Assembly: GCA_035513175.1 (NCBI GenBank)
Contig: DATKCN010000250.1
Coordinates: 2,468-66,467 of the forward strand
Source of the DNA: Thermomicrobiales bacterium
GTDB lineage: Bacteria > Chloroflexota > Chloroflexia > Thermomicrobiales > CFX8
Length of the DNA stretch: 64,000 nt
Direction of reading: 5' to 3'
A program made the translations under genes and the position numbers. Within the stretch, counting starts at the first letter, position 1, and each line of letters starts with the position of its first letter. This document shows positions 16,386 to 56,487 of this stretch, piece by piece. The notes beneath the pieces are model-generated. The model worked only from the letters and a program-made list of their open reading frames with translations. It made no database searches and was not told the origin of the DNA.

Positions 16386-16404
16386 TGGAACCACGTCGGG
16401 GGCG

Positions 16405-17826
16405 ATGATGGATTTGCCGGTCCTGCTCGAGCGTTCGTCGACTCAGCCGCTCCAAAGCCAGCTCACGGAACAGATGCGGCGCGCGATTCTCGACGGTCGG
16501 CTGGCGGCCGGCACGCGGCTGCCATCGACGCGGGTGCTGTCAAAGGAGATCGGCGTCTCGCGCAACGTGGCGCTGGCCGCCTACGATGAGCTGTTCGCCG
16601 ATGCCTATGTCGAGGGGCGGCACGGCTCCGGCACGCTCGTCTCCGGGGATCTGCCGCCCCTGCCCAGGCCGTCGCTGCCCGTGCCGCTCGGCTCGCCGCG
16701 CTGGCTGCGCCCGATCACGCCGTTGCCGGACCTGGAGGTAGACGTTCCGGGCGCCATCGAGTTCCGGCTCGGCAAGCCGTAACCGACGGATTTGCCGCGC
16801 GATGTCTGGCGGCGAGTCTGGAACGATGTTGCGGGCCAGTTGCCCCCCTCCGACTACGGCGCCCCGGCCGGCGACCCTGAGCTGCGCGAGGCGATCGCGG
16901 GCTACCTGCGTCGCTGGCGGGGCGTGGCCTGCGGCGCGGGGGACGTGGTCGTGACGGCGGGCGCGATTCAGGCCGTCGACCTGATCGCGCGGGCTATTAT
17001 CGAGCCGGGGGACACGGTCGGTTTCGAGGAGCCGGGCTATCCATTGGCGCGCCAGGCGCTCCAGGCGCGCGGGGCGAAACTGTTGCCGGTCCAGGTCAAT
17101 CACGACGGGATGCAGGTGGATCTCATTCCGAGCGGTCCGGGCGCGCCGATCTTCGTCTACGTCACCCCGTCGCACCAGTACCCGCTGGGGGCGCGCATGC
17201 CGGTTGGCCGTCGGATGGCGCTGTTGGAATGGGCGCGCGCCAATGACGCGCTGGTCGTCGAAGACGACTACGACAGCGTATTCCGCTTCGACGCGCCGCC
17301 GTTGCAGGCGCTGGCTGGGCTGGACGACGGCGGTCGGGTCGCGTACATCGGGACGTTCTCGAAGGTGCTGTCACCGGCGTTGCGGGTCGGCTACCTGGTC
17401 GTGCCGCCCCCACTGCGGGAACGCGTGGAGCACTTCAAGCGCATCAGCGACTTTCACGCGTCGTGGCCGCTGCAGCGGGCGCTGCCGGCGTTCGTTCGGG
17501 AAGGCCACCTGGAGCGCCACATCCGCCGCATGCGCCGCCACTGCGGGGACAAGCGCCAGGCGCTGAGCGCGACGCTCGCGCCGGTGTCCGATGTCGCGCG
17601 GCCACGGGGACTGGAGGCGGGCCTGCACGAGTTCCTCGAACTTGACGCGACGGTCGATCCCGTCCCGTTGTCGCGAGCAGGGCGTGATCGTCAGCACCGT
17701 CCACCCGTATTGCATGCCCGGCAACGTCCCGGCCTGTTGCTGGGCTACGGTGGGCTGACCATCGACGAGATCAACGCGGGAGGGCGCGTCCTGGCGGCGA
17801 CGATCCGTGCCGCCGCGGCGGGATGA
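16405..17826 (+). pseudogene. MocR/PdxR-type regulator (GntR wHTH + class-I aminotransferase-like domain), disrupted
   Basis: ORFs 16405..16782 and 16792..17826 are in the same frame, separated by TAA 16780..16782 (...FRLGKP*PTDLPRDVWRRVW). The N-terminus has a GntR HTH (LPSTRVLSKEIGVSRNVALAAYDEL). The C-terminal domain has YVTPSHQYPLG and GTFSKVLSPALRVGY (PLP Lys). Around 17672..17731 the family-like sequence REQGVIVSTVHPYCMPGNVP is read in a different frame from the ORF, implying two compensating indels. Confidence 0.7.
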
Positions 17827-18513: not shown

Positions 18514-19395
18514 ATGACAGGATTGCCCGTGAAACCAAGCAAGCTACGGCAGAGCGTGCTGCTCTTTTTCGTCGTCGGCCCCCTCATTGCGACTGCCTAC
18601 GCCATGTACACGCTCTGGCATCAGTGGATCGGGTGGTCTGAGCTGACGCTGTTCTTCGTCCTGTACATGGCGACGGGACTCGGCGTGACGGTCGGCCTGC
18701 ACCGGCTGCTGACCCACCGCAGCTTCGAGGTCAGCACGCCACTCAAGGCGCTGTTCCTCATTCTGGGATCGATGGCCGTGCAGGGACGCGTGATCGACTG
18801 GGCCGCCAATCACCTGAAGCATCATGCCTTCTCGGATCAGGAAGGCGATCCCCATTCCCCGCTGGAGGGCTTCATCCACGCGCATGTTGGCTGGATCTTC
18901 TCCGCGCCGCCGCCGGACAAAGAGCGCTACGCCAAGCGGCTGATGGCAGACCCGGTCATTACCTTCATCGACCGCACCTTTCTGGTGTGGGTCGGGCTGG
19001 GGCTGCTCATCCCGTACCTGCTCGCCGGCTGGCAGGGCCTGCTCTGGGGCGGCTTTGTGCGCATCGCGGTCGTGAATCACGTCACCTGGGCGGTTAACTC
19101 CGTCTGCCACACCTTCGGCGACCGGCCATTCGACATCAAGGACATGAGCCGCAACAACTGGATCGTCGGCCTGCTGGCCTTCGGCGAAGGCTGGCACCAT
19201 AACCACCATGCCTTCCCGGCAATGGCCTACCACGGCATGTCCTGGAAGCAGTTCGATCTCTCCGCCCTGGTCATCCGGCTGCTGGCAACGCTGCGGCTGG
19301 CTCGCAACATCAAGCTGCCGTCCCCAGAGCTGATCGAGCGTCGCCGCCTGCGCGCCTCGAAGCGCGTCGTTACGCAACCGGTCGCCGGCGACTAG
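18514..19395 (+). CDS. Membrane acyl-CoA/acyl-lipid delta-9-type fatty acid desaturase
   Basis: 293 aa with N-terminal TM helices and three His boxes: HRLLTHRS, HLKHHAFSD, HNHHAF. Confidence 0.9.
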   Translation: MTGLPVKPSKLRQSVLLFFVVGPLIATAYAMYTLWHQWIGWSELTLFFVLYMATGLGVTVGLHRLLTHRSFEVSTPLKALFLILGSMAVQGRVIDWAANHLKHHAFSDQEGDPHSPLEGFIHAHVGWIFSAPPPDKERYAKRLMADPVITFIDRTFLVWVGLGLLIPYLLAGWQGLLWGGFVRIAVVNHVTWAVNSVCHTFGDRPFDIKDMSRNNWIVGLLAFGEGWHHNHHAFPAMAYHGMSWKQFDLSALVIRLLATLRLARNIKLPSPELIERRRLRASKRVVTQPVAGD

Positions 19396-19560
19396 TGAGC
19401 GGGTAGCGGTGAGCGGTGAGCGGAGAGGGGTTCGCGCAGGCGGCCTCGCGCCCTCGCTCGCGGCTCAAGCAAAGTGAGACGTGACACGCAACCGACGCCG
19501 TGGTCCCACTTAACCGCTCACCGCTCACCGCTCACCGCTCACCGCTCACCGCTCACCGCG
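19395..19560. repeat. Inverted pair of heptanucleotide tandem arrays: (GTGAGCG-type)x5 at 19395..19429 and (CCGCTCA)x6+CCGCG at 19514..19560
   Basis: Left: GTGAGCG GGTAGCG GTGAGCG GTGAGCG GAGAGGG, starting on the last base of the desaturase TAG. Right: six perfect CCGCTCA units, the reverse complement of the left unit. ~84-nt spacer. The stop codon of the minus-strand AhpD-like gene (19548..19546) lies inside the right array. Confidence 0.85.
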
Positions 19561-20172
19561 GAACGTCCCGTGAAACGCGCGGTCCGGGATGAAGCCGCAC
19601 GCGTTGGCGACGCGGTTGTTGAAGTTGTAGATCGCGGCGGTCTGGATGACGTCGTAGACGTCCTCGTCGGACAGGCCGTGCGCCTTCAGCGCCTCGATGT
19701 CCGCCTCCCTGCAATCGACCGACGAGCGCGTAATCTTGATCGCGTAGTCGAGGATGGCCCGCATGCGCGCGTCCAGTCCAGCCCGCCGGTAATCCTGCAC
19801 GATGCGCTCCGAGAGGACTGGGTCACCCGTCAGGCGCCGCAACTCGGCGCCGTGATTGGTGAGTCAGAGCATGCAACGGTTCTCTGACGAGACGACCACC
19901 CCGATCATCTCGCGCTCGACGCGCGTCAGCCCCGATGGCGCCTTGCTGATGAACTCGTACAGCTCCAGCCAGCGCATCATCAGGTCGGGTCGCCAGGAGT
20001 GGACGCGCACGACGTTGTTGGGCGCCCCGAGCTTCTCTCGCTGCAGCGCGACCAGCTCGGCCACGCGCGGATCGAGGTCCTCTTCCTTCGGGATTGGGAA
20101 CCAGCTTATGCGCTCGGTTGGGGTCCAGTCGGACGTCGTGTCCGCCTGCTCCGCGTGCGGCGTGTCAGACAT
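19546..20172 (-). CDS. AhpD/carboxymuconolactone-decarboxylase-family 'peroxidase-related' protein with in-frame TGA (19866..19864) at the CxxC position; candidate selenoprotein (or a very recent pseudogene)
   Basis: ORFs 19864..20244 and 19546..19842 share one frame and are separated only by TGA. The joined protein is MSDTPHAEQ...ISWFPIPKEEDLDPRVAELV...LTRVEREMIGVVVSSENRCML[TGA]LTNHGAELRRLTGDPVLSERIV...IYNFNNRVANACGF... Start ATG 20172 has AGGAG 6 nt upstream and overlaps the stop of the upstream gene (ATGTCTGA). Confidence 0.7.
19823..19862 (-). other. SECIS-like stem-loop immediately 3' of the in-frame UGA
   Basis: mRNA: UGA CUCACC AAUCAC GGCGCCG AGUUG CGGCGCC UGACG GGUGA. Outer helix UCACC/GGUGA, inner 7-bp helix GGCGCCG/CGGCGCC, apical loop AGUUG about 20 nt after the UGA. 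Folded by eye only. Confidence 0.4.
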
Positions 20173-23100
20173 CGAGTGCTCCTGCCTCATCCTCGCCAGA
20201 CCATTCCGGCGAATCGTGACTCCAGACTGCTTCAAGCGTGTCACGAATGAACTCTACGGTCACGCGTCCATCGTGGAGATCGCTGGAAGCCGCCGCGACA
20301 ACCCGCGTTCGGGCCTCGTCGATCGTTAGCGGCCGGTCGCTGGCAAGGTAGCCGCCTTCTTCGAGGAAGCGCTGGAGGTCGTTGCGCATCGCGCCGCGGA
20401 AATGCGAAATCTCGCCACGGTCCAGCGCCGCGATCAAGCTCTGGGCGTTACCGTCGACACGCCGCGCGAGCGCCGCGACACGGTCGATGAACACCGGCGT
20501 GATGACGCCGCACTCGATTATCACGGCGCGGTCGACGGGGCGTCCCCTCCCTGCGCGGAAGCAGGCGCAGGCTTCTTTGATGACATCCGCGCGCGCGTGG
20601 CAGCGTCGAACGATCTGCTCCTGACCGTCGAGCAGGTCCGCGCCGCCCAGATCGGCCATGGCGCGTAGTTGTCCCCACGTTTCGATGTGCAGCGAAAGCA
20701 GGCGGTGCAGCGCGTGAGTGTCGTCGATCAGGTGCCAGAGGTGTAGCCCGCCATCGCTCTCCGCGCGCGGGTCAATGCCGGGAACGCGCAGTAGCTCGCG
20801 ATAGTCGTCATGGCTCAAGCCGTCCGGCTCGGGGATCGTGATCACGGGCCACTCCACGTGCGCGACCGGCGGCAGACGCTCCCAGTCAGCGAGATCGCGA
20901 ATCTCGGCCAGATCCAGCAAGCGGAACGGAACCTCGGGATGCTGGGACATCACCGCTTGCCATTTGCGCACCTCGTCGTGTTGCGCGGTCAGGTACAGCA
21001 CCTGACGTCCGGAGCCAGCGATCTCTATGGTGGCGTCAATGATGGCGCGCGCCCGCTGCTCGTCGCTGTTGCCAAGCGTCTCGTCGAAGATGAGTGGCAG
21101 CATTACGCCCTGCTCCTGATGTTCGACGAACGCCACCCGCACCGCCAGCAGAAGCTGGAGACGGGTCCCGCTCGACAGCTCGTGCAGCGCGTGTCCGGCG
21201 CCGGTGACGTTGTCGATGGCCCGGAAGGCGGGCGGCTCGGTGTCGCTCAGTTCCAGCCGGTAGCGCCCGTGGGTGATCTTGACGAACAGCTCACGCGCCC
21301 GGTGGAAGACGAGCGGGCGGTCGTTGTCCCGCGTCTCCTCTCGGACGAAGTCGGCGATGCTCCAGCCCGCGACCTGCGCGTAGGCCTGCTCGCGGGCCTC
21401 GGCCAACTGCTCGCCATGCATCTGCTCAGCGGCCAGTGCCCGTTCAAGATCGTGCTTCGTTTTGGCCTCCGCGACCCGCGCCGTTACCGCCGCGATCTCG
21501 TCGCGAATCTCGTCCTGCTCCGCGCTGTGCTCGCGAGCGTCCTCCAGCCGCCGTTCAATCTCCGTAGCGGCTTCATCGGCCAGATGGCCGTCGTCGCCGA
21601 GCGCCTGTTCCGCGCGCTCGCACTCCAGCCTGGCACGCTGGGACGCTTCCCGCGCCAGCCGGTAGGCCTCCAGCTGGTCCAGCAGACCGGTGAGCTGATG
21701 CTCGTCCTCCTCGTTCATGTCGAGACGCTCGAAGAACGCGTGAATATCCGCTTCCCGGCGCTCTAGCTGCGGTCTGAGCTGCTCGCGCAGCAGCCGGGTG
21801 CTGCGCTCGTGGCTCGCCTGAGCCTCGTTCCAATCTCGTTCCCGCTGTGTCAGGTCCTCGATGCAACCGAGCGCTTCCGCCTGTTTCGCGACGGTCGCGT
21901 AGTCATATGAGGCCAGCGTCGCGTTGAGCTCGTCGAACGTGGCCGCGAGGCGGGTCCTGAGCGCGGCGATCTCCGCCGCCGTTCCATTCAAGCGGTCGCG
22001 CGCGTGCTGCCATTGCACGAGATTGCTGGCCAGCACGTACAGGCTCGCTGGGTCGCGTCCGGGCGCCGCGCCAAACCGCGTGGCTGCCGCGTCGATTTCT
22101 GCCTGTGCTTCGGCGCTGCGAGCCTGCAGCGCGACGCGCTCGTCAGCAACGTAATCCCAGCGTTGCCGCTTCTCCTCATCGAGGGCGCGTGACCGTTGCT
22201 GTTGCGCCAGGGTCTCGATCAGCAGTTCCACCTCCGCTGAGTGCCACGTTGAGGGCGCGTCGAGCTGCAAGCGCTCGTATTCAGCGCGCACCAGCTCCGT
22301 CGCGGAAGTCGCCTCGGAAGCGCTCCGAGAGCGGCCCTGTTTGAGAGCCACGTACACCAGCCACGCCCCGGTCACCACAAGGATGAGCGCGGCCGGATGG
22401 GCGACGATCCCCAGCACGATGCTCTGCACGATCACTGCGATGCCGGCGATCAACAGCAATGTGCGCCGCTGATTCGCCTTGCCAGCCGGCGCCTCGGCGC
22501 GCTCGTGCCGCAGCCACTGGTCGAGCGCGTGGATGCCCGCATCCAGTCGTCGTCGCTCTTCGGGATCCAGCGGCTGGCTCGACGCGATCGGCCCGAGCCA
22601 CGTGTGCAATGCCTCCAGTGCCGCGAGCTGCGCACGGACCGTCGCGTGTCGCTGTGCCAGCTCCGCGAGCTGATCGAATTCCACGACACCCAGTCCGGCC
22701 AGACGTGAGTCGTCCGCCAGCGCCCCGAGCGAACGCCGGGCCGTCTCAAGCTGAACTGACGCGTCATCACGCCGGGTTTCCGCCGCCCGTGTGGCGGATG
22801 TGATGTCCTGCAGCTCCGAGCAACGCTCCCGTAGTGCCGCAACGAGTCCGCCGGGTACGCGCTCATCCAGACGGGCGCGCCGCTGCCGGTCCACCGCGTC
22901 GGACATCTGCTGGGACTCGGCGGCAATCGCGGCGCGCGCCTCCTCCTGGCGCAGCCGCAGGTCCCGAAGTGTCTCTCGCTCGTCGCCTGAAAGTCGTTCC
23001 ATCACGTCGGGAAACGTCGTGAGCTGTGCGAGCGTGTCATCCCGCGCGCTGCGCGCGAGGCGGCAATCAAGCGCCTTCTGCAGCGTCGCAACTTTCCTGT

Positions 23101-23692
23101 CAGCCTCTCGCGCCTCGTCGAGCTCGCGGTTCAGGCCTTCCAGCGTGCGCTCTTCGTCCAGCAATCGCTGCTGAGCCGCGAGGGCGGCCTGCCGGTCCTG
23201 CGTCGCCTGATCGCGCAGTCCCTTCAGTCGCTGCGGCGCGCTCGGACGTTGGGTGAGCTTCAACGCCTGTATCGCCGCGCCCACATCGTAGCCACCGGCT
23301 GACTCACGCAGGATCGCTTCGGCGAACGAGCGATTGTCGGCCGCCAGCAGGACGTGTAGCGCCAGTAGATACCGCTCGCTGTCTGCCGCGACAATCGGGT
23401 GGTCCGCGTCGACGCCGTCTCGCTGGCAGCGTTTGCCTCCGTTGTCGTACTCGACCAGCCAGCGCGCGCCGTCGAACTCAAACGCCCCGGCCACCACCGC
23501 CTGCGGGGACATCGGGGACGAAGGCCACAGCAGGGTCAGCAGGGCGTGCGTGAGGGTCGTCTTGCCGGATGCGTTCGGACCGTGAATGACGTTGACGCCC
23601 GAGCACAGCCCGTCGACGACGAAAGATGCGTCGATGCCGTACATACGGCGCACGTCGAGCCGGTCGAACCTGACGCTGAGCCTCGCACTCAC
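20165..23692 (-). CDS. SbcC/Rad50-like (YhaN-type) AAA ATPase with coiled coil, internal TM hairpin and ~270-aa C-terminal extension
   Basis: 1175 aa. Walker A GPNASGKTT at the N-terminus, a long Ala/Glu/Arg/Leu-rich coiled-coil region, two hydrophobic helices RRTLLLIAGIAVIVQSIVLGIVAHPAALILVVTGAWLVYVAL (~aa 404-446), ABC signature-like LSSGTRLQL, Walker B MLPLIFDE, and LTAQHDE. GTG start overlaps the upstream stop (GTGA). Confidence 0.8.
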   Translation of the reverse strand: MSARLSVRFDRLDVRRMYGIDASFVVDGLCSGVNVIHGPNASGKTTLTHALLTLLWPSSPMSPQAVVAGAFEFDGARWLVEYDNGGKRCQRDGVDADHPIVAADSERYLLALHVLLAADNRSFAEAILRESAGGYDVGAAIQALKLTQRPSAPQRLKGLRDQATQDRQAALAAQQRLLDEERTLEGLNRELDEAREADRKVATLQKALDCRLARSARDDTLAQLTTFPDVMERLSGDERETLRDLRLRQEEARAAIAAESQQMSDAVDRQRRARLDERVPGGLVAALRERCSELQDITSATRAAETRRDDASVQLETARRSLGALADDSRLAGLGVVEFDQLAELAQRHATVRAQLAALEALHTWLGPIASSQPLDPEERRRLDAGIHALDQWLRHERAEAPAGKANQRRTLLLIAGIAVIVQSIVLGIVAHPAALILVVTGAWLVYVALKQGRSRSASEATSATELVRAEYERLQLDAPSTWHSAEVELLIETLAQQQRSRALDEEKRQRWDYVADERVALQARSAEAQAEIDAAATRFGAAPGRDPASLYVLASNLVQWQHARDRLNGTAAEIAALRTRLAATFDELNATLASYDYATVAKQAEALGCIEDLTQRERDWNEAQASHERSTRLLREQLRPQLERREADIHAFFERLDMNEEDEHQLTGLLDQLEAYRLAREASQRARLECERAEQALGDDGHLADEAATEIERRLEDAREHSAEQDEIRDEIAAVTARVAEAKTKHDLERALAAEQMHGEQLAEAREQAYAQVAGWSIADFVREETRDNDRPLVFHRARELFVKITHGRYRLELSDTEPPAFRAIDNVTGAGHALHELSSGTRLQLLLAVRVAFVEHQEQGVMLPLIFDETLGNSDEQRARAIIDATIEIAGSGRQVLYLTAQHDEVRKWQAVMSQHPEVPFRLLDLAEIRDLADWERLPPVAHVEWPVITIPEPDGLSHDDYRELLRVPGIDPRAESDGGLHLWHLIDDTHALHRLLSLHIETWGQLRAMADLGGADLLDGQEQIVRRCHARADVIKEACACFRAGRGRPVDRAVIIECGVITPVFIDRVAALARRVDGNAQSLIAALDRGEISHFRGAMRNDLQRFLEEGGYLASDRPLTIDEARTRVVAAASSDLHDGRVTVEFIRDTLEAVWSHDSPEWSGEDEAGALDV

Positions 23693-24972
23693 GACGCCCG
23701 CTCCCTCTGCGCCACGAGCGTGTCCAGCAGCTGGTATCCCTCACGCAGCAGGTGCTCCCGCGCGACGGCGCGGTCGAGCGTCCCGACGTCCGCGATCCCC
23801 GCGTACACCGCGTGCCGCTCCACCGTTCGCAACCTCGCCAGCGTGTCGTCGATCAGCCGCCGGCAGGCCTCCGCGTCATCATTCGCTTCGAGCGCGCTCA
23901 GCGTGCGGGCCAGCGCCCCGGGCGGATCGTTGCGCCGCGACAGTTCATCGAGCGAGAGCGCAGGGCGCGTGTCGAGCGACAGTTTCTCGACGAATCCCTG
24001 GACGTGTCCCGCGTGCAGGCTTAAGTCGCCCGGAAGGTGCTTCAGATGTTCCGCCACGTCGCGGTGAATCGGCGTGCGTCCCGTCACCGTCACCCGAAAC
24101 GCCACGCATTCGAGGTCACCACCAGCCGCCGCAACTTCCGTGAGATGGATCTGCGCCGCGCTGGTCACAGTGTTGAGCAGTGCGTCCTGATCCTCAACGT
24201 CACTGACATCGATCGCCAGCGGCTCGTAGCGCACGCGCGCCGTCGGGAACTGCCGCGCCTCGGGAGCGCGTCCCGGAAGCAGCTCGACGAGCCAGGGACC
24301 GTGCGGACCTGTCTCACCGGGGTCCATTCCCTGCGGTGAGCCCGGATACATGAGCGTCACCCCGCTGATATGCCTGATTGATGGGTGGTGAATGTGTCCC
24401 AGCAGCCAGAGCGCCACCCGCTGGCGGCCCAGGTCCGCCAGTGTCACCGGCGCATAGACGCTGCCCGGCTGGTCGAGGTCGGCGTGCAGCAGGCCCAGCA
24501 CCGGCAGCCCGTCGTCGGGGCCGATCGGATACGACGCGAGCGGGTTGAAGCGCACCTGTTGGCTGGGGAACGACCAGCCGTCGACGTGCAACACGGCGTC
24601 CCCACCGCTGAGAATCGTCCGGCGCTCCCACTGCCCGCCCTGGCCCAGCAGATGCAGCCGCTCACCCGCCGCGCCGCGCTTCAACAGCGGTAGGACATCG
24701 AAGTCGTGGTTACCCGCCACCGCGATCGTGTCGATGCCCGCTTCCGCGAGACGGCGCAGCCCACGCTCCAGCGGCCCGAACGCTTCGAAGTAGCGGTTCG
24801 CCCGGTCGACCACGTCGCCGCTGAGCGCCAGCAGATCAACCCGTTCCCGCAGCGCGACATCTACGATCGAATCCCACGCAGCGGCCGTGGAGAACCGGGC
24901 GCTATCGAGGCCTTCCGGCACGCGGCTGGACCGGCGTCCGATGTGGATGTCACCAGAGCAGAGAATTTTCAA
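23689..24972 (-). CDS. SbcD/Mre11-like (YhaO-type) calcineurin-fold metallophosphoesterase / DNA repair exonuclease
   Basis: Motifs LCSGDIHIG, LSGDVVD, VAGNHD, LLHADL, LLGHIH. I start it at TTG 24972 (GAAGGA 6 nt upstream), which overlaps the upstream stop as TTGA. The ORF-track start 25074 would add 34 Pro/Arg-rich codons overlapping the upstream gene. Confidence 0.8.
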   Translation of the reverse strand: MKILCSGDIHIGRRSSRVPEGLDSARFSTAAAWDSIVDVALRERVDLLALSGDVVDRANRYFEAFGPLERGLRRLAEAGIDTIAVAGNHDFDVLPLLKRGAAGERLHLLGQGGQWERRTILSGGDAVLHVDGWSFPSQQVRFNPLASYPIGPDDGLPVLGLLHADLDQPGSVYAPVTLADLGRQRVALWLLGHIHHPSIRHISGVTLMYPGSPQGMDPGETGPHGPWLVELLPGRAPEARQFPTARVRYEPLAIDVSDVEDQDALLNTVTSAAQIHLTEVAAAGGDLECVAFRVTVTGRTPIHRDVAEHLKHLPGDLSLHAGHVQGFVEKLSLDTRPALSLDELSRRNDPPGALARTLSALEANDDAEACRRLIDDTLARLRTVERHAVYAGIADVGTLDRAVAREHLLREGYQLLDTLVAQRERAS

Positions 24973-25763
24973 GGGTCGTCCTTCATCGGGTCCGCTCCGC
25001 TCCGGGCGAACAGGATGCAACCGTGCTGGTAATACTGGCAGCGCTCGCACTGGCGGGACTGGATCGGCGCCCACTCCCCGCTGACGTGATTCTCGTCGAT
25101 CTCGCGGGCAATGCTCCGGATGCGACCGACGATTGGGCGCGCCTCATCCCTGGTGAGGTAGCGACTATCCGACTCTCGAGAGCTGAGATAGGTCGTTGTC
25201 GAGCGCACACGTGCCTCGTCGAGCGCGCTGCCGACGGCGATGCGCGCAACGACGGCTTGAAGCTCGTCGGCCGGGTGGCGTCTGCCGGTCTTCCAGTCGA
25301 TGTGCTCGATCTCGACGGCGTCCACGCGCACGAGCAGGTCGACCTTGGCCTTCACGATGAACGGAAGCTCAGCTCCCTTGCCACGAAAGCTGAAGCCGTA
25401 GCTGCGCTCAACCACATGGACCGACTTGCGCGGGTCGAACGATTCGACCGCGGCGTCGACCCAATCGTGAATCATGTCGATTTCACGGACCCTGTCGACG
25501 CGCGCCAGCTCTGATTCAGGCGTTACCCGCGCTTCGATCTCGCCGCGCAGGTCGGCAGGGAACGACCGGCGCCCCGCGAACACCTTGAATGCCTGAGCCA
25601 GCACCTCATGCGTGATTCTCCCGCGCGTCATTTCTGCCGCGGCGACGATGCGGCCCTTGCGCTTGCGGACATGCTTGAGAAAGTACTTCTGCGGGCAGGC
25701 TTCGAACGTCGTCAGATGATTGACCCAGTAGGTGGGCGTGAAGCGGCGCGACGGTTGAGCCAT
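24969..25763 (-). CDS. PD-(D/E)XK nuclease, Cas4/AddB-like with four-Cys (Fe-S cluster type) arrangement
   Basis: 264 aa. N-terminal LTTFEACPQKYFL (first Cys), GRITHEVL, KVDLLVRVD...EIEHIDWKTG (D...ExK core), C-terminal CERCQYYQHGC (CxxCx6C). GGAGGAGG 8 nt upstream of ATG 25763. Confidence 0.75.
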   Translation of the reverse strand: MAQPSRRFTPTYWVNHLTTFEACPQKYFLKHVRKRKGRIVAAAEMTRGRITHEVLAQAFKVFAGRRSFPADLRGEIEARVTPESELARVDRVREIDMIHDWVDAAVESFDPRKSVHVVERSYGFSFRGKGAELPFIVKAKVDLLVRVDAVEIEHIDWKTGRRHPADELQAVVARIAVGSALDEARVRSTTTYLSSRESDSRYLTRDEARPIVGRIRSIAREIDENHVSGEWAPIQSRQCERCQYYQHGCILFARSGADPMKDDP

Positions 25764-31177: not shown

Positions 31178-31217
31178 ATCGCCTCCCCCTCTCCCACTTT
31201 CGCACGCGCCAGACCGC

Positions 31218-31255
31218 CGCATCATGCCAGCACGTCCGCATCATGCCAGCACGTC
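31218..31255. repeat. Perfect 19-nt tandem duplication CGCATCATGCCAGCACGTC x2 (+CGCA)
   Basis: Read directly. It lies ~40 nt upstream of the ridA start on the minus strand. Confidence 0.85.
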
Positions 31256-31274
31256 CGCAGCGGGGCAACACACG

Positions 31275-31769
31275 GAGTCGGGATGCGGGACGTGGCGGGG
31301 ATGGCGCGGGTAGCGCGCGCCGACCTCTGTAGGGGCCGGTCTTGCGCCGACCCACGGCCCGCTGGCCGTCCGGCAGGACCGGGCACGACGCAGGCACATG
31401 TGCGGTGAGCGCAACTAGTGCATGAGGAGTTCAAGGACGCCAAACCCATACACGTCCGGTTGTCGTCCTTGACCATGACGTAAACCGTCAGAGGCATCCG
31501 AGGCCGTTACGACACCGCCGGATCGGTCGGGCATCGCGGCGCGCGGCCAGCGGGCCGCCGGGCCCGGCAAGCCGCGGCCCCTACGGGGGTTGACAATGCG
31601 CCGCCGTTCGAAATCGGTCCGGCATCGACGCGGCGGCCTCACGGCCGAGGCCGGCACAAGACCGGCCCTAACCAGGATCGGCGCGCGGCATCCGAGCCCG
31701 TCGCCGCCGCGTCCCGCGTCCCGGCCAGCGCGTCCCGCTTCCCGACCAACGCGTTCCGCATCCCGACTC
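31275..31769. repeat. ~495-bp non-coding element bounded by 20-nt imperfect inverted repeats (18/20)
   Basis: Left arm GAGTCGGGATGCGGGACGTG (31275..31294). Right arm CGCGTTCCGCATCCCGACTC (31750..31769), whose reverse complement is GAGTCGGGATGCGGAACGCG. The interior has no coding-like ORF and is packed with REP-like hairpins and 7-nt-periodic repeats. No obvious target-site duplication. Confidence 0.55.
31329..31673. repeat. Three REP-like GTAGGGGCC-type hairpin elements (31329..31353 plus strand; 31561..31584 and 31647..31673 minus strand)
   Basis: GTAGGGGCCGGTCTTGCGCCGACCC. Reverse complement of 31561..31584 is GTAGGGGCCGCGGCTTGCCGGGCC. Reverse complement of 31647..31673 contains TTAGGGCCGGTCTTGTGCCGGCC (perfect GGCCGG/CCGGCC stem). 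Mutually similar, and similar to the motif at 4766. Confidence 0.55.
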
Positions 31770-41057: not shown

Positions 41058-42005
41058 GTGGTTCAAGACGGATCGAAGGTCGGGACTGGACCGTTGGCGA
41101 CGCCTGCGGCTGGGCCGCAAGCCAGTGAGTCACTGACGACCCTCGGCTCCGCCGCTCCGCAACGGCGCCGCACCAGCGTCTGGCAGCGCTTCCGCCGCCA
41201 CCGGCTGGCGCTGATCGGGCTGACCATCCTCGTGCTTTTGGCAATCGTCTCGATCGGGGCGCCGCTCTTCACCCAACATGGTCCGTACAGCGTTGATCTG
41301 CGTTCGGCCCGCATGGGGCCGACCTCCAGCCACATTCTGGGGTCTGACCCCGCCGGGCGCGATGTCTTCAGCCGGCTGTTGTACGCCGGGCGGGTGTCGC
41401 TTTCAGTTGGCATTGTTGCCGTCGCGATCTACACCGTCATCGGGGTTGTCCTGGGCGCGGTCGCGGGCTTCTACGGCGGGTGGGTCGACTCCACGATCAT
41501 GCGGCTGGCCGACATCGTGCTGGCGTTTCCATCGCTGCTGATCATCATCACCGTCGTGTCGGTGCTAGGCCCCAGCCTGTTCAACATCATGCTCGTCATC
41601 GGCCTGCTCGGCTGGCCGCCGATCACGCGCCTGCTGCGTGGCGAGTTCCTGTCGCTGCGCGAGCGCGAGTTCATCGTCGCCGCGCGCGCCACCGGGGCGA
41701 GGAACAACCGGCTGATGTTCCGGCACCTGCTGCCGAACGCCATCGCGCCGATCATCGTTGCCGCCACCTTCGGCGTGGCGAACGCCATCCTGCTGGAGGC
41801 CGGGCTGAGCTTTCTCGGTCTGGGCGTGCAGCCGCCGACGCCGAGTTGGGGTAGCATGCTGACGGGCGCGCAGTCGCTGACCGTGCTGGAGTCGATGCCG
41901 TGGCTGTGGGTTCCGCCGGGCGTCATGATCGCCGTGGCGGTGCTCTCGATCAACTTCATCGGCGATGGCCTGCGGGACGCCCTCGACCCGTATCTGTCCC
42001 GCTGA
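41058..42005 (+). CDS. ABC transporter permease (DppC/OppC-like)
   Basis: 315 aa. GTG start with GGAGGAG 6 nt upstream. REFIVAARATGARNNRLMFRHLLPNAIAP EAA loop. No ATPase gene follows. Confidence 0.9.
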   Translation: MVQDGSKVGTGPLATPAAGPQASESLTTLGSAAPQRRRTSVWQRFRRHRLALIGLTILVLLAIVSIGAPLFTQHGPYSVDLRSARMGPTSSHILGSDPAGRDVFSRLLYAGRVSLSVGIVAVAIYTVIGVVLGAVAGFYGGWVDSTIMRLADIVLAFPSLLIIITVVSVLGPSLFNIMLVIGLLGWPPITRLLRGEFLSLREREFIVAARATGARNNRLMFRHLLPNAIAPIIVAATFGVANAILLEAGLSFLGLGVQPPTPSWGSMLTGAQSLTVLESMPWLWVPPGVMIAVAVLSINFIGDGLRDALDPYLSR

Positions 42006-42106
42006 TCCGCTGCCCACGCGTCTATTGCGTATATGAGGAGGGCCGCCCTGTAGAGACCGCGCCAGGCGCCTCGACGATCTGTTTTCAACCGGGGAGGGAA
42101 CGCAAC

Positions 42107-43282
42107 GTGTCAGACATATACGGCAGGCTCGGCCTGCGTCCGCTCATCAACGCGCGCGGATCGCACACGCGGCTCGGCGGCTCGATCATGCCCGCCGAGG
42201 TGCTCGACGCCATGCGCGAGGCTGCTCAAACGTACATCGTGCTGGAGGAGCTGCAGGAGAAGGCCAGTGAGGTCATCGCCCGCGCTACCGGCGCCGAGGC
42301 CGGGATGGTCACCGGAGGGGCCGCGGCAGGACTGATACTCGGGACCGCCGCCTGCATCGCCGGGAGCGATCCGGCCAGCATCGAGCGCCTTCCGGACACG
42401 TCCGGCATGAAGGGCGACGTGGTGATGCATCGCGCGCACCGCAACGGCTACGACCACAGTGTCCGCGCCGCCGGGGCGCGCATCGTCGAAGCAGGCTACG
42501 GGCACGGCACGATTCCCTACCAGCTCGAAGCGGCTATCGGCGAGCAGACGGCGCTCGTCTTCTACGTGATGGCTCCCTGGGCCAGCAAGGGCGCGCTCTC
42601 GCTGCGGAAAACCTGCGAAATCGCCCACCGCAAGGGCGTGCCGGTCATGGTCGACGCCGCCGCGATGCTGCCGCCCGCCGAAAACCTCACGCGCATCATC
42701 GCCGACGGCGCCGATCTGGTGGTCTACAGCGGCGGCAAGGGCATCCGTGGCCCGCAGTCGTCCGGCATTCTGGCGGGCCGCGCCGATCTCGTCCGTGCTG
42801 CGGCCATGAACGGCAGCCCGAATCACAGCATTGGGCGCCCTGCCAAGGCCGCGCGTGAGGACATCGTCGGGCTCATCGTCGCGCTGGAACGCTTCATGGC
42901 GCTCGATCACGACGCGGAGCTGGCGCGCTGCCGCGCGCAGGCCGAGTTCATGCTCGGCAAGCTGGGAGACTTTCCGGGCGTTGAGGCGCACTACCGGCAC
43001 GACGGCTACGAGCACCCGATGCCGCGCGTCGAGCTGGTCATCGACCGTGCCGAGACCGGCATCGAAGCCGGAGAGCTGATAGGCGCGCTGGAACAGGGCG
43101 ATCCGCGCGTGTTCGTCATCGCCTGGAACGGCCCGACGGCCAGCCCGAACAACATCACGATAAATACCCACACGATGCTGCCCGGAGAGGAGGACGCCGT
43201 CGCCGAGGTCATCGGTCACGCGCTCCGGCAGCGATTGAATGCAAACGCGCCCGCGCTGGCGGGCAGTGTCGCGAGCTTATAG
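42107..43282 (+). CDS. SelA-like / DgaE-like PLP-dependent enzyme (fold-type I; lacks the SelA N-terminal domain)
   Basis: ORF 41900..43282 trimmed to GTG 42107 (GGGAGGGA upstream). YSGGKGIRGPQSSGILAG carries the PLP-Lys context shared with SelA (SGDKLLGGPQ). ~391 aa. Confidence 0.7.
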   Translation: MSDIYGRLGLRPLINARGSHTRLGGSIMPAEVLDAMREAAQTYIVLEELQEKASEVIARATGAEAGMVTGGAAAGLILGTAACIAGSDPASIERLPDTSGMKGDVVMHRAHRNGYDHSVRAAGARIVEAGYGHGTIPYQLEAAIGEQTALVFYVMAPWASKGALSLRKTCEIAHRKGVPVMVDAAAMLPPAENLTRIIADGADLVVYSGGKGIRGPQSSGILAGRADLVRAAAMNGSPNHSIGRPAKAAREDIVGLIVALERFMALDHDAELARCRAQAEFMLGKLGDFPGVEAHYRHDGYEHPMPRVELVIDRAETGIEAGELIGALEQGDPRVFVIAWNGPTASPNNITINTHTMLPGEEDAVAEVIGHALRQRLNANAPALAGSVASL

Positions 43283-56367: not shown

Positions 56368-56487
56368 GTCGAGACGGGTGATGCGGGACGCGGGACGCGA
56401 TCCTGCAGGATTGTTGATCCCCAGGATGCCGAGGATGTTCACCTGCCCCAATCCATTACTCCCTGTTCCCTGTTCCCTGTTCCCTGA
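56362..56487. repeat. Heptamer-array locus: GAGTC-GAGACGGG..GATGCGGGAC GCGGGAC GCG (56362..56399) and (CCCTGTT)x3+CCCTGAA (56461..56487)
   Basis: The left part overlaps the nitroreductase TGA (56365..56367). It shares GATGCGGGACG with 31282..31292, and CGGGACGCGGGACGCG (56384..56399) is the reverse complement of 31708..31723. The right array ends at the purD upstream region. Confidence 0.7.

Follow-up and report, generated by a model that had tools for sequence, protein, structure and literature searches.

An AhpD-like gene with an in-frame TGA

The DNA described here is a stretch of 64,000 nucleotides from a Thermomicrobiales bacterium (GenBank assembly GCA_035513175.1, contig DATKCN010000250.1, positions 2,468 to 66,467 of the forward strand), referred to below as the window. 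At 19546..20172 its minus strand carries what is predicted to be a complete selenoprotein coding sequence, 208 codons followed by a TGA stop, for an AhpD-like ‘peroxidase-related enzyme’ (TIGR01926/COG2128/Pfam CMD). An internal, in-frame TGA at 19864..19866, found at the same column in relatives, is the proposed codon for selenocysteine (Sec, or U in the one-letter code) and supplies the second redox residue of the motif C-M-L-U.

In mechanical gene calling, this TGA splits the sequence into two minus-strand open reading frames (ORFs), 19864..20244 and 19546..19842. Both lie in a single frame, and TGA 19866..19864 is all that separates them, as the initial annotation had seen in the sequence. 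The minus-strand letters around it read GAG AAC CGT TGC ATG CTC TGA CTC ACC AAT CAC GGC GCC GAG TTG CGG CGC CTG, and the corresponding peptide is ...ENRCML[TGA]LTNHGAELRRL.... The proposed Sec is codon 103 of the full-length frame. It is followed by 105 sense codons before the real stop, not by the 98 that had been counted, while the claim that this part is intact holds, as it contains neither a stop nor a frameshift. The 98-residue ‘ORF’ 19546..19842 begins at a TTG that lies within the loop of the RNA hairpin described below. The likely start is the ATG at 20172 (MSDTP...), with which the N-termini of orthologues agree. As had also been noted, this ATG overlaps the TGA stop of the upstream gene, which codes for an SMC-like ATPase of 1175 residues; the overlap, ATGTCTGA, spans 20165..20172 on the minus strand. 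A scan of all six frames based on GC content at third codon positions singled out the AhpD-like gene as the sole convincing TGA-split coding pair in the window.

In public records the gene has no selenoprotein annotation. GenBank entry HUG15800.1, on a 70.6-kb contig of a metagenome-assembled genome (MAG), consists of the N-terminal piece alone and is named ‘hypothetical protein VMM78_12390 [Thermomicrobiales bacterium]’. Among JGI gene calls, similar fragments of 100-115 residues are named ‘alkylhydroperoxidase family enzyme’.

Protein family and redox motif

Family profiles were searched with the protein in which U was read as C. TIGR01926, the ‘peroxidase-related enzyme’ family, matched with 160.4 bits (cutoff 81.8) over profile positions 1-176 of 178, and the AhpD core domain profile TIGR00778 (ahpD_dom) was passed with 36.2 bits against 27.8. 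The match to Pfam CMD (PF02627; 55.6 bits, gathering score 23) places the protein at the superfamily level only and is silent on decarboxylase activity. Two other candidate families were rejected because their cutoffs were missed by a wide margin, namely canonical AhpD (TIGR00777; 21.6 bits against 191.95) and the (seleno)protein family NF041238, AhpD_rel_CFYUT (38.2 bits against 175). Five proteins of known structure, PDB entries 2PFX, 3C1L (Mlr4105), 6K40 (AhpD), 2OYO and 2PRR, align continuously with residues 26-205 (E = 1e-33 to 1e-43), and the CxxC motif of all five falls on C-M-L-[TGA]. Like the window protein, they are single-domain proteins (191-197 residues), but all of them are Cys forms (CFYC/CYYC), and the entry names of 2PFX, 2OYO and 2PRR say uncharacterized. 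Since both the TIGR01926 and the structural alignments span the TGA, the two ‘ORFs’ are halves of one domain.

The local signature of the protein is E-x11-C-x-x-U-x3-H. The initial annotation had placed the TGA at the second Cys of the redox CxxC, and the alignments agree, with Cys at that column in 120 of 120 full-length database homologues, every one of them encoded as a single ORF. The catalytic relay of Mycobacterium tuberculosis AhpD consists of Glu118, Cys130, Cys133 and His137, in the signature Glu-x11-Cys-x-x-Cys-x3-His (PMC3141380), and Cys133 is its exposed cysteine, which attacks AhpC and makes a mixed disulfide with it (PMC6626918). The proposed Sec is equivalent in position to Cys133. 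Compared with the canonical relay, Glu-x11-Cys-x-[His/Tyr]-Cys-x3-His, the Glu, the first Cys, the Sec in place of Cys and the His are correctly spaced, while the His/Tyr position is Leu in the window protein and Phe or Met in relatives.

This last position, just before the second Cys or Sec, is Leu, Phe or Met throughout the Thermomicrobiales clade (CMLU, CVFU, CMMU, CLLC), in Sec forms and in the Cys forms nested among them alike; it is Tyr (C-x-Y-C) elsewhere in TIGR01926 and His in M. tuberculosis AhpD. The proposed proton-relay residue is therefore absent from the clade.

The family evidence bears directly on the reading that follows public gene calls and mechanical ORF calling, namely that the locus holds two functional genes, one for an N-terminal protein of 102 residues ending at the TGA and one for a C-terminal protein starting from TTG 19842. 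The catalytic motif C-x-x-[U]-x3-H straddles the TGA, with its His downstream, and frame conservation extends through the seven codons that link the TGA to the TTG. The TTG itself belongs to the hairpin loop rather than to a start with a ribosome-binding site. With solved homologues that form a single domain across both halves, and Cys forms that are all single ORFs, a pair of separate genes is scarcely credible.

Conservation of the TGA and translation beyond it

A scan of species-representative genomes yielded 17 loci, all in Thermomicrobiales/Chloroflexia MAGs and with 67-80% identity. The exact column holds TGA in 14 of them and TGT in two (L014 and L015, with the motif CLLCQANHS), and one locus is truncated, which makes TGA the codon in 14 of the 16 informative orthologous MAG loci. 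Another 80 loci came from a scan of metagenomes with orthologue alignment. Among the 13 with at least 73% identity, 12 have TGA and one has TGT; in all 67 of the more distant ones the codon is TGC or TGT, for a total of 68 Cys forms in the metagenome sample. The TGA of the window thus has 26 further carriers (14 genome and 12 metagenome loci), in line with the expectation of the initial annotation that orthologues would have at this column either a Cys codon or a conserved TGA with a hairpin.

The TGA is also supported beyond its own assembly, since the Logan assembly of run SRR8556377, an independent one, contains an identical N-terminal fragment that ends at the same TGA. MAGs like the one that holds the window do have consensus errors, and a stop codon in a neighboring gene (see below) might be one, so that TGC or TGT could be imagined as the true codon here. 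Yet the identical fragment in the Logan assembly and the recurrence of the TGA in 26 other assemblies from many projects rule out an assembly error as well as a private mutation, and leave next to no chance for an explanation by faulty sequencing.

The half of the gene that follows the TGA is translated. Among the 15 genome-derived Sec forms, the median ratio of nonsynonymous to synonymous substitution rates (dN/dS) is 0.107 upstream of the TGA (88 codons) and 0.159 downstream (102 codons), with dS of about 0.8-0.9, and no downstream stop or frameshift occurs in any of them. The downstream value bears out the purifying selection that had been anticipated, and together with the recurrence of the TGA it contradicts a scenario in which one strain alone carries the TGA and constraint beyond it is relaxed.

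That an ordinary nonsense mutation has inactivated the gene might be entertained because the N-terminal piece stands in GenBank as a hypothetical protein by itself, and because, as the initial annotation had warned, the window does hold a nonsense-disrupted gene, at a distance of 3 kb. The latter is a MocR/PdxR-like gene on the plus strand (~16400..17826) whose in-frame TAA at 16780..16782 falls between its GntR-type helix-turn-helix and aminotransferase domains (...FRLGKP*PTDLPRDVW..., where the asterisk is the stop). Its orthologue in a related genome (L001) has Phe at that position and no stop (...FRLGRPFTTQLPADVW...), and the TAA is either a true nonsense disruption that is not conserved or an error in the MAG consensus. 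The TGA of the AhpD-like gene behaves in the opposite way. It recurs in 26 other sequences, which stem from different species and studies, and the 105 codons behind it are under constraint and free of further stops and frameshifts. This conservation effectively refutes the pseudogene reading, which is highly improbable.

The genetic code is not reassigned in this genome. Of 14 confident ORFs in the window, 8 terminate at TGA, more than at any other stop codon, and these include the gene upstream and the AhpD-like gene itself; a genome-wide reassignment of TGA is thereby ruled out.

A neighbor-joining tree, built without support values, places the Cys clade with the CQANHS motif among the Sec forms, which are paraphyletic in it. 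Because of this nesting, the tree tentatively suggests that Sec is ancestral in the Thermomicrobiales clade and that Cys was regained later, with decay of the RNA hairpin. Such a reversion would fit the dynamic exchange between Cys and Sec that has been described for bacteria (PMC1794560).

A candidate SECIS hairpin

Immediately 3' of the UGA, the mRNA is predicted to form a hairpin with the properties of a bacterial selenocysteine insertion sequence (SECIS). Its core, at 19833..19851 on the minus strand, consists of a 7-bp stem, GGCGCCG (19851..19845) paired with CGGCGCC (19839..19833), and of the loop AGUUG (19844..19840), which begins 19 nt downstream of the UGA. In this genome, the minimum free energy (MFE) structure extends the stem to 19823..19862 by an outer helix, UCACC (19862..19858)/GGUGA (19827..19823), and a middle helix, UCA/UGA. 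Inner helix, loop and a spacing of about 20 nt had all been described in the initial annotation and stand. The outer helix it had included is present in the sequence but is not conserved among orthologues, as its pairs are partly kept in the first 15 sequences and missing from most metagenome forms. Only the 7-bp stem and the AGUUG loop are conserved across the 27 Sec forms, and the outer helix, confined to a few genomes, was not counted as belonging to the conserved element.

The 61 nt that start with the UGA fold with -29.4 kcal/mol (z = -4.0), a stability that none of 200 shuffled sequences equaled. For the UGA plus 45 nt, the value is -26.0 kcal/mol, and for the core hairpin alone -15.3 kcal/mol. 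When the region was recoded 5000 times with synonymous codons according to the codon usage of the genome, no recoding equaled the native -26.0 kcal/mol (mean -13.2 ± 2.45, z = -5.2).

The hairpin is under selection. When synonymous variation is compared between 13-codon windows of the gene, the minimum (0.21, mean 0.37) falls on the 13 codons just after the TGA, and codons +6 to +9 (GCC GAG TTG CGG) show none at all in 15 sequences. The Leu codon of the loop, TTG, is fixed in 27 of 27 Sec forms, though it is rare, accounting for 7% of the Leu codons in this genome. Across the 27 sequences, 98.8% of the stem cells are paired, with two compensatory pairs and five one-sided changes that keep a G·U wobble. 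In one metagenome form (L030), two outer G-C pairs have become A-U; the change is GGC to AAC (Gly to Asn) in the 5' arm and synonymous in the 3' arm (CGC to CGT and CTG to TTG). The first 15 sequences gave no covariation, their stem being too conserved, and the analysis became informative only once the metagenome loci were added. The stem is broken in L014, L015 and L032, Cys forms that group within the clade.

Published constraints on bacterial SECIS (bSECIS) elements are a loop of 3-9 nt, a stem of 4-16 bp, a G in the first two loop positions, a spacing of 16-37 nt and an MFE of -7.5 kcal/mol or lower (PMC13188914). With its 5-nt loop, 7-bp stem, G at loop position 2 followed by U, 19-nt spacing and -15.3 kcal/mol, the window hairpin falls within all of them. 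Like the SECIS of the Escherichia coli fdhF type, it lies within the coding region just 3' of the UGA, has a GU-containing apical loop and is spaced within 16-37 nt, but the two have no similarity in primary sequence.

Two Cys forms, at L019:1705-1752 and L020:1777-1824, encode the same HGAELRRL peptide with CTG or CTT as the codon for the loop Leu. Their folds, at about -20 kcal/mol, are more stable than the mean of -13.2 kcal/mol for recodings of the window sequence, and they could represent either the vestige of a SECIS or a predisposition to one.

Search for Sec-decoding machinery and a possible reading without selenium

Genes for the Sec-decoding machinery were sought by tblastn in the window and all loci with E. 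coli SelA, SelB and SelD as probes, the SelD probe being 99.7% identical to the real E. coli SelD, while tRNA-Sec was sought with ARAGORN on the window and all loci. Apart from a GTPase-domain match adjoining a Cys form, tblastn returned a weak match to SelA. This is an ORF of 460 residues on the plus strand (41900..43282), which was rejected as SelA, with 220 bits for TIGR01437 against 50 bits for selA. By these scores it is predicted to be a SelA-related, pyridoxal phosphate-dependent enzyme of the DgaE/D-glucosaminate-6-phosphate ammonia-lyase family. It adjoins genes for an oligopeptide ATP-binding cassette permease and might pass for SelA in a cursory search. Beside the Cys-form AhpD-like gene of another locus, ARAGORN reported a 93-nt ‘tRNA-???’ with a 2-nt anticodon (L082:8757-8849, minus strand), probably a false positive, as Rfam sees neither a tRNA nor a tRNA-Sec there. 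No selD of a Thermomicrobium megaplasmid was among the matches listed for E. coli SelD against the PLSDB plasmids.

Several observations weigh against selenocysteine at this UGA. Neither the 64-kb window nor the flanks of 100 loci (~650 kb), a small fraction of each genome, yielded selA, selB, selD or tRNA-Sec. In the literature on Thermomicrobia, Sphaerobacter and Chloroflexi, no paper was found that documents the use of Sec in Thermomicrobiales; the examples documented for Chloroflexota lie outside this order, in Dehalococcoidia. Rfam returned no SECIS or other relevant family, either for the whole window at gathering thresholds or for 19700..19950 in a permissive search. The covariation is thin, in that both compensatory pairs come from L030 alone and 8 of 500 shuffles reach these values, and two Sec forms (L010 and L013) have one A·C mismatch each in the stem. 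Distant Cys homologues that encode HGAELRRL also fold, with about -20 kcal/mol, into different, weaker hairpins, and the GC-rich peptide therefore supplies part of the folding propensity. Finally, reviews do not count the AhpD-like family among the experimentally verified selenoproteins (PMC9312934).

An alternative is that the UGA is read through without Sec, either with insertion of Cys by a SelB-like factor and a tRNA-Sec-like tRNA-Cys or by a near-cognate tRNA, with the hairpin stimulating read-through. The missing machinery and the absence of a literature record of a Sec trait in the order would agree with it, as would the base that follows the UGA, an invariant C in all 27 Sec forms. A C after UGA is a weak termination context in E. 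coli. However, the hairpin fits the Sec-specific bSECIS model on all the published constraints, and the site is that of the attacking redox Cys in a family where Sec is already known at this position. A motif whose other residues (E, C and H) are strictly conserved would be destroyed by a catalytic Trp or Arg. The failure to detect the machinery says little, given the small part of each genome that was covered. Read-through without Sec is very unlikely.

Carried further, such a reading would make the conserved UGA and its hairpin a selenium-free device of this aerobic Thermomicrobiales clade from soil and desert, in which a tRNA-Sec-like tRNA inserts Cys in a SelB-like, SECIS-dependent manner in genomes that lack selA and selD. 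A milder version takes the gene as the first marker of an undocumented Sec trait of Thermomicrobiales, with the CQANHS Cys clade as a secondary reversion. If true, selenium-free decoding would amount to a lineage-wide non-Sec recoding of UGA at a catalytic site, but this proposal is a speculative one that we regard as very unlikely.

Insertion of selenocysteine at the in-frame UGA of the AhpD-like gene is the explanation we favor, with a probability of roughly 0.88.

Neighboring genes and other features of the window

The genes around the AhpD-like gene are unrelated to redox function and differ among loci beyond the closest relatives. Directly upstream on the minus strand, at 20165..25763, lies a run of three genes whose stop and start codons overlap; they encode a Cas4-like PD-(D/E)XK nuclease (264 residues), an SbcD/Mre11-like nuclease (461 residues) and the SMC-like ATPase (1175 residues). 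All three assignments are weak matches, and the run may be a DNA-repair or defense module. The ATPase gene is found upstream in only one other locus, L002. Downstream neighbors are a convergent desaturase gene, a cold-shock protein gene and the MocR-like regulator gene.

A perfect heptamer array, (GGTGAGC) x 6.7 at 19513..19559 on the minus strand, reaches into the AhpD-like gene, where it covers the TGA stop and the four codons before it; the C-terminus of the window protein is ...FRGER*, that of its closest relatives ...FR*. The stop of the desaturase gene is abutted by an inverted, imperfect array, GTGAGCG x 5.3 at 19395..19431. Folded together, the two arrays give an extended hairpin of 171 nt (-99.4 kcal/mol, z = -4.7), which may be a bidirectional terminator or else a small repeat element. 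No other place in the window has this pattern (6 hits, 0.07 expected). Other perfect or near-perfect tandem repeats are a 19-mer x 2.3 at 31217..31259, a 21-mer x 2.9 at 31708..31767 and the heptamer TCCCTGT x 3.9 at 56460..56486.

Proposed mechanism and relation to known selenoproteins

In the proposed mechanism, the exposed, attacking cysteine of the E-x11-C-x-x-C-x3-H signature is encoded by UGA and would be read as Sec. By analogy with bacterial Sec insertion in general, SelB carrying Sec-tRNA(Sec) would bind the hairpin 19 nt downstream and deliver Sec at the UGA in place of release factor 2, upon which the ribosome would continue through the remaining 105 codons. If the protein works as M. 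tuberculosis AhpD does, its C-M-L-U center may cycle between a selenol/thiol and a selenenylsulfide and thereby reduce an oxidized partner of the peroxiredoxin type or a peroxide. The two proteins share the Glu-x11-Cys-x-x-Cys-x3-His signature and a distant homology. In contrast to M. tuberculosis AhpD (PDB 1GU9/1KNC), the window protein has Leu at the position of the proton-relay His132, and its gene adjoins no gene for AhpC or for a partner from a lipoamide system.

The initial annotation had mentioned AhpD-like selenoproteins from bacterial surveys, and the literature documents them. The ‘AhpD-like protein’ (COG2128, CxxU) was first recognized as a selenoprotein family in 2005, from 27 Sargasso Sea sequences (PMC1088965). 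In the Global Ocean Sampling (GOS) survey, which counted 299 Sec and 902 Cys forms of it, the family ranked fourth in abundance (PMC2398784). An AhpD-like selenoprotein is also present in Alkaliphilus and others (PMC1794560), and current reviews list ‘AhpD-like protein, TIGR01926/COG2128, CxxU’ (PMC13188914; PMC9312934). This family (COG2128/YciW, TIGR01926, ‘AhpD-like 1’ of GOS, representative MCB9421940.1) and the window protein are the same in protein family, in the CxxU motif with Sec on the second Cys, and in the interchange of Cys and Sec with plentiful Cys homologues. They differ in provenance, the Thermomicrobiales clade coming from soil, desert and Antarctic MAGs, as judged from record titles, and the known members from marine plankton, Clostridia and Deltaproteobacteria. 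They differ also in the middle residues of the motif, which are M-L, V-F or L-L in the Thermomicrobiales clade, whereas x-Y is usual in the AhpD-like family. NF041238 (AhpD_rel_CFYUT) and the ‘distant AhpD homolog’ (COG0599, CxxU) likewise belong to the CMD superfamily and have Sec in place of a CxxC cysteine, but they are separate families. As all computable features of the AhpD-like CxxU family were found, the gene belongs to it. It is an unannotated member of a catalogued selenoprotein family, in a lineage not noted for the use of Sec, and not a new kind of system.

With family, motif and mechanism catalogued since 2005, knowledge of selenoproteins as such is unchanged, and the gain is a corrected annotation. 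Once the UGA is recognized as a Sec codon, at least 27 Thermomicrobiales/Chloroflexia sequences regain a complete redox enzyme. The gene also offers a natural example of the constraint that a SECIS would impose on coding sequence, in which silent sites are frozen, a rare codon is fixed and the peptide LTNHGAELRRL is shaped, with decay of these traits after reversion from Sec to Cys. For the organisms themselves, Sec at this position would imply Sec decoding in largely aerobic Chloroflexota of soil, desert and Antarctic habitats.

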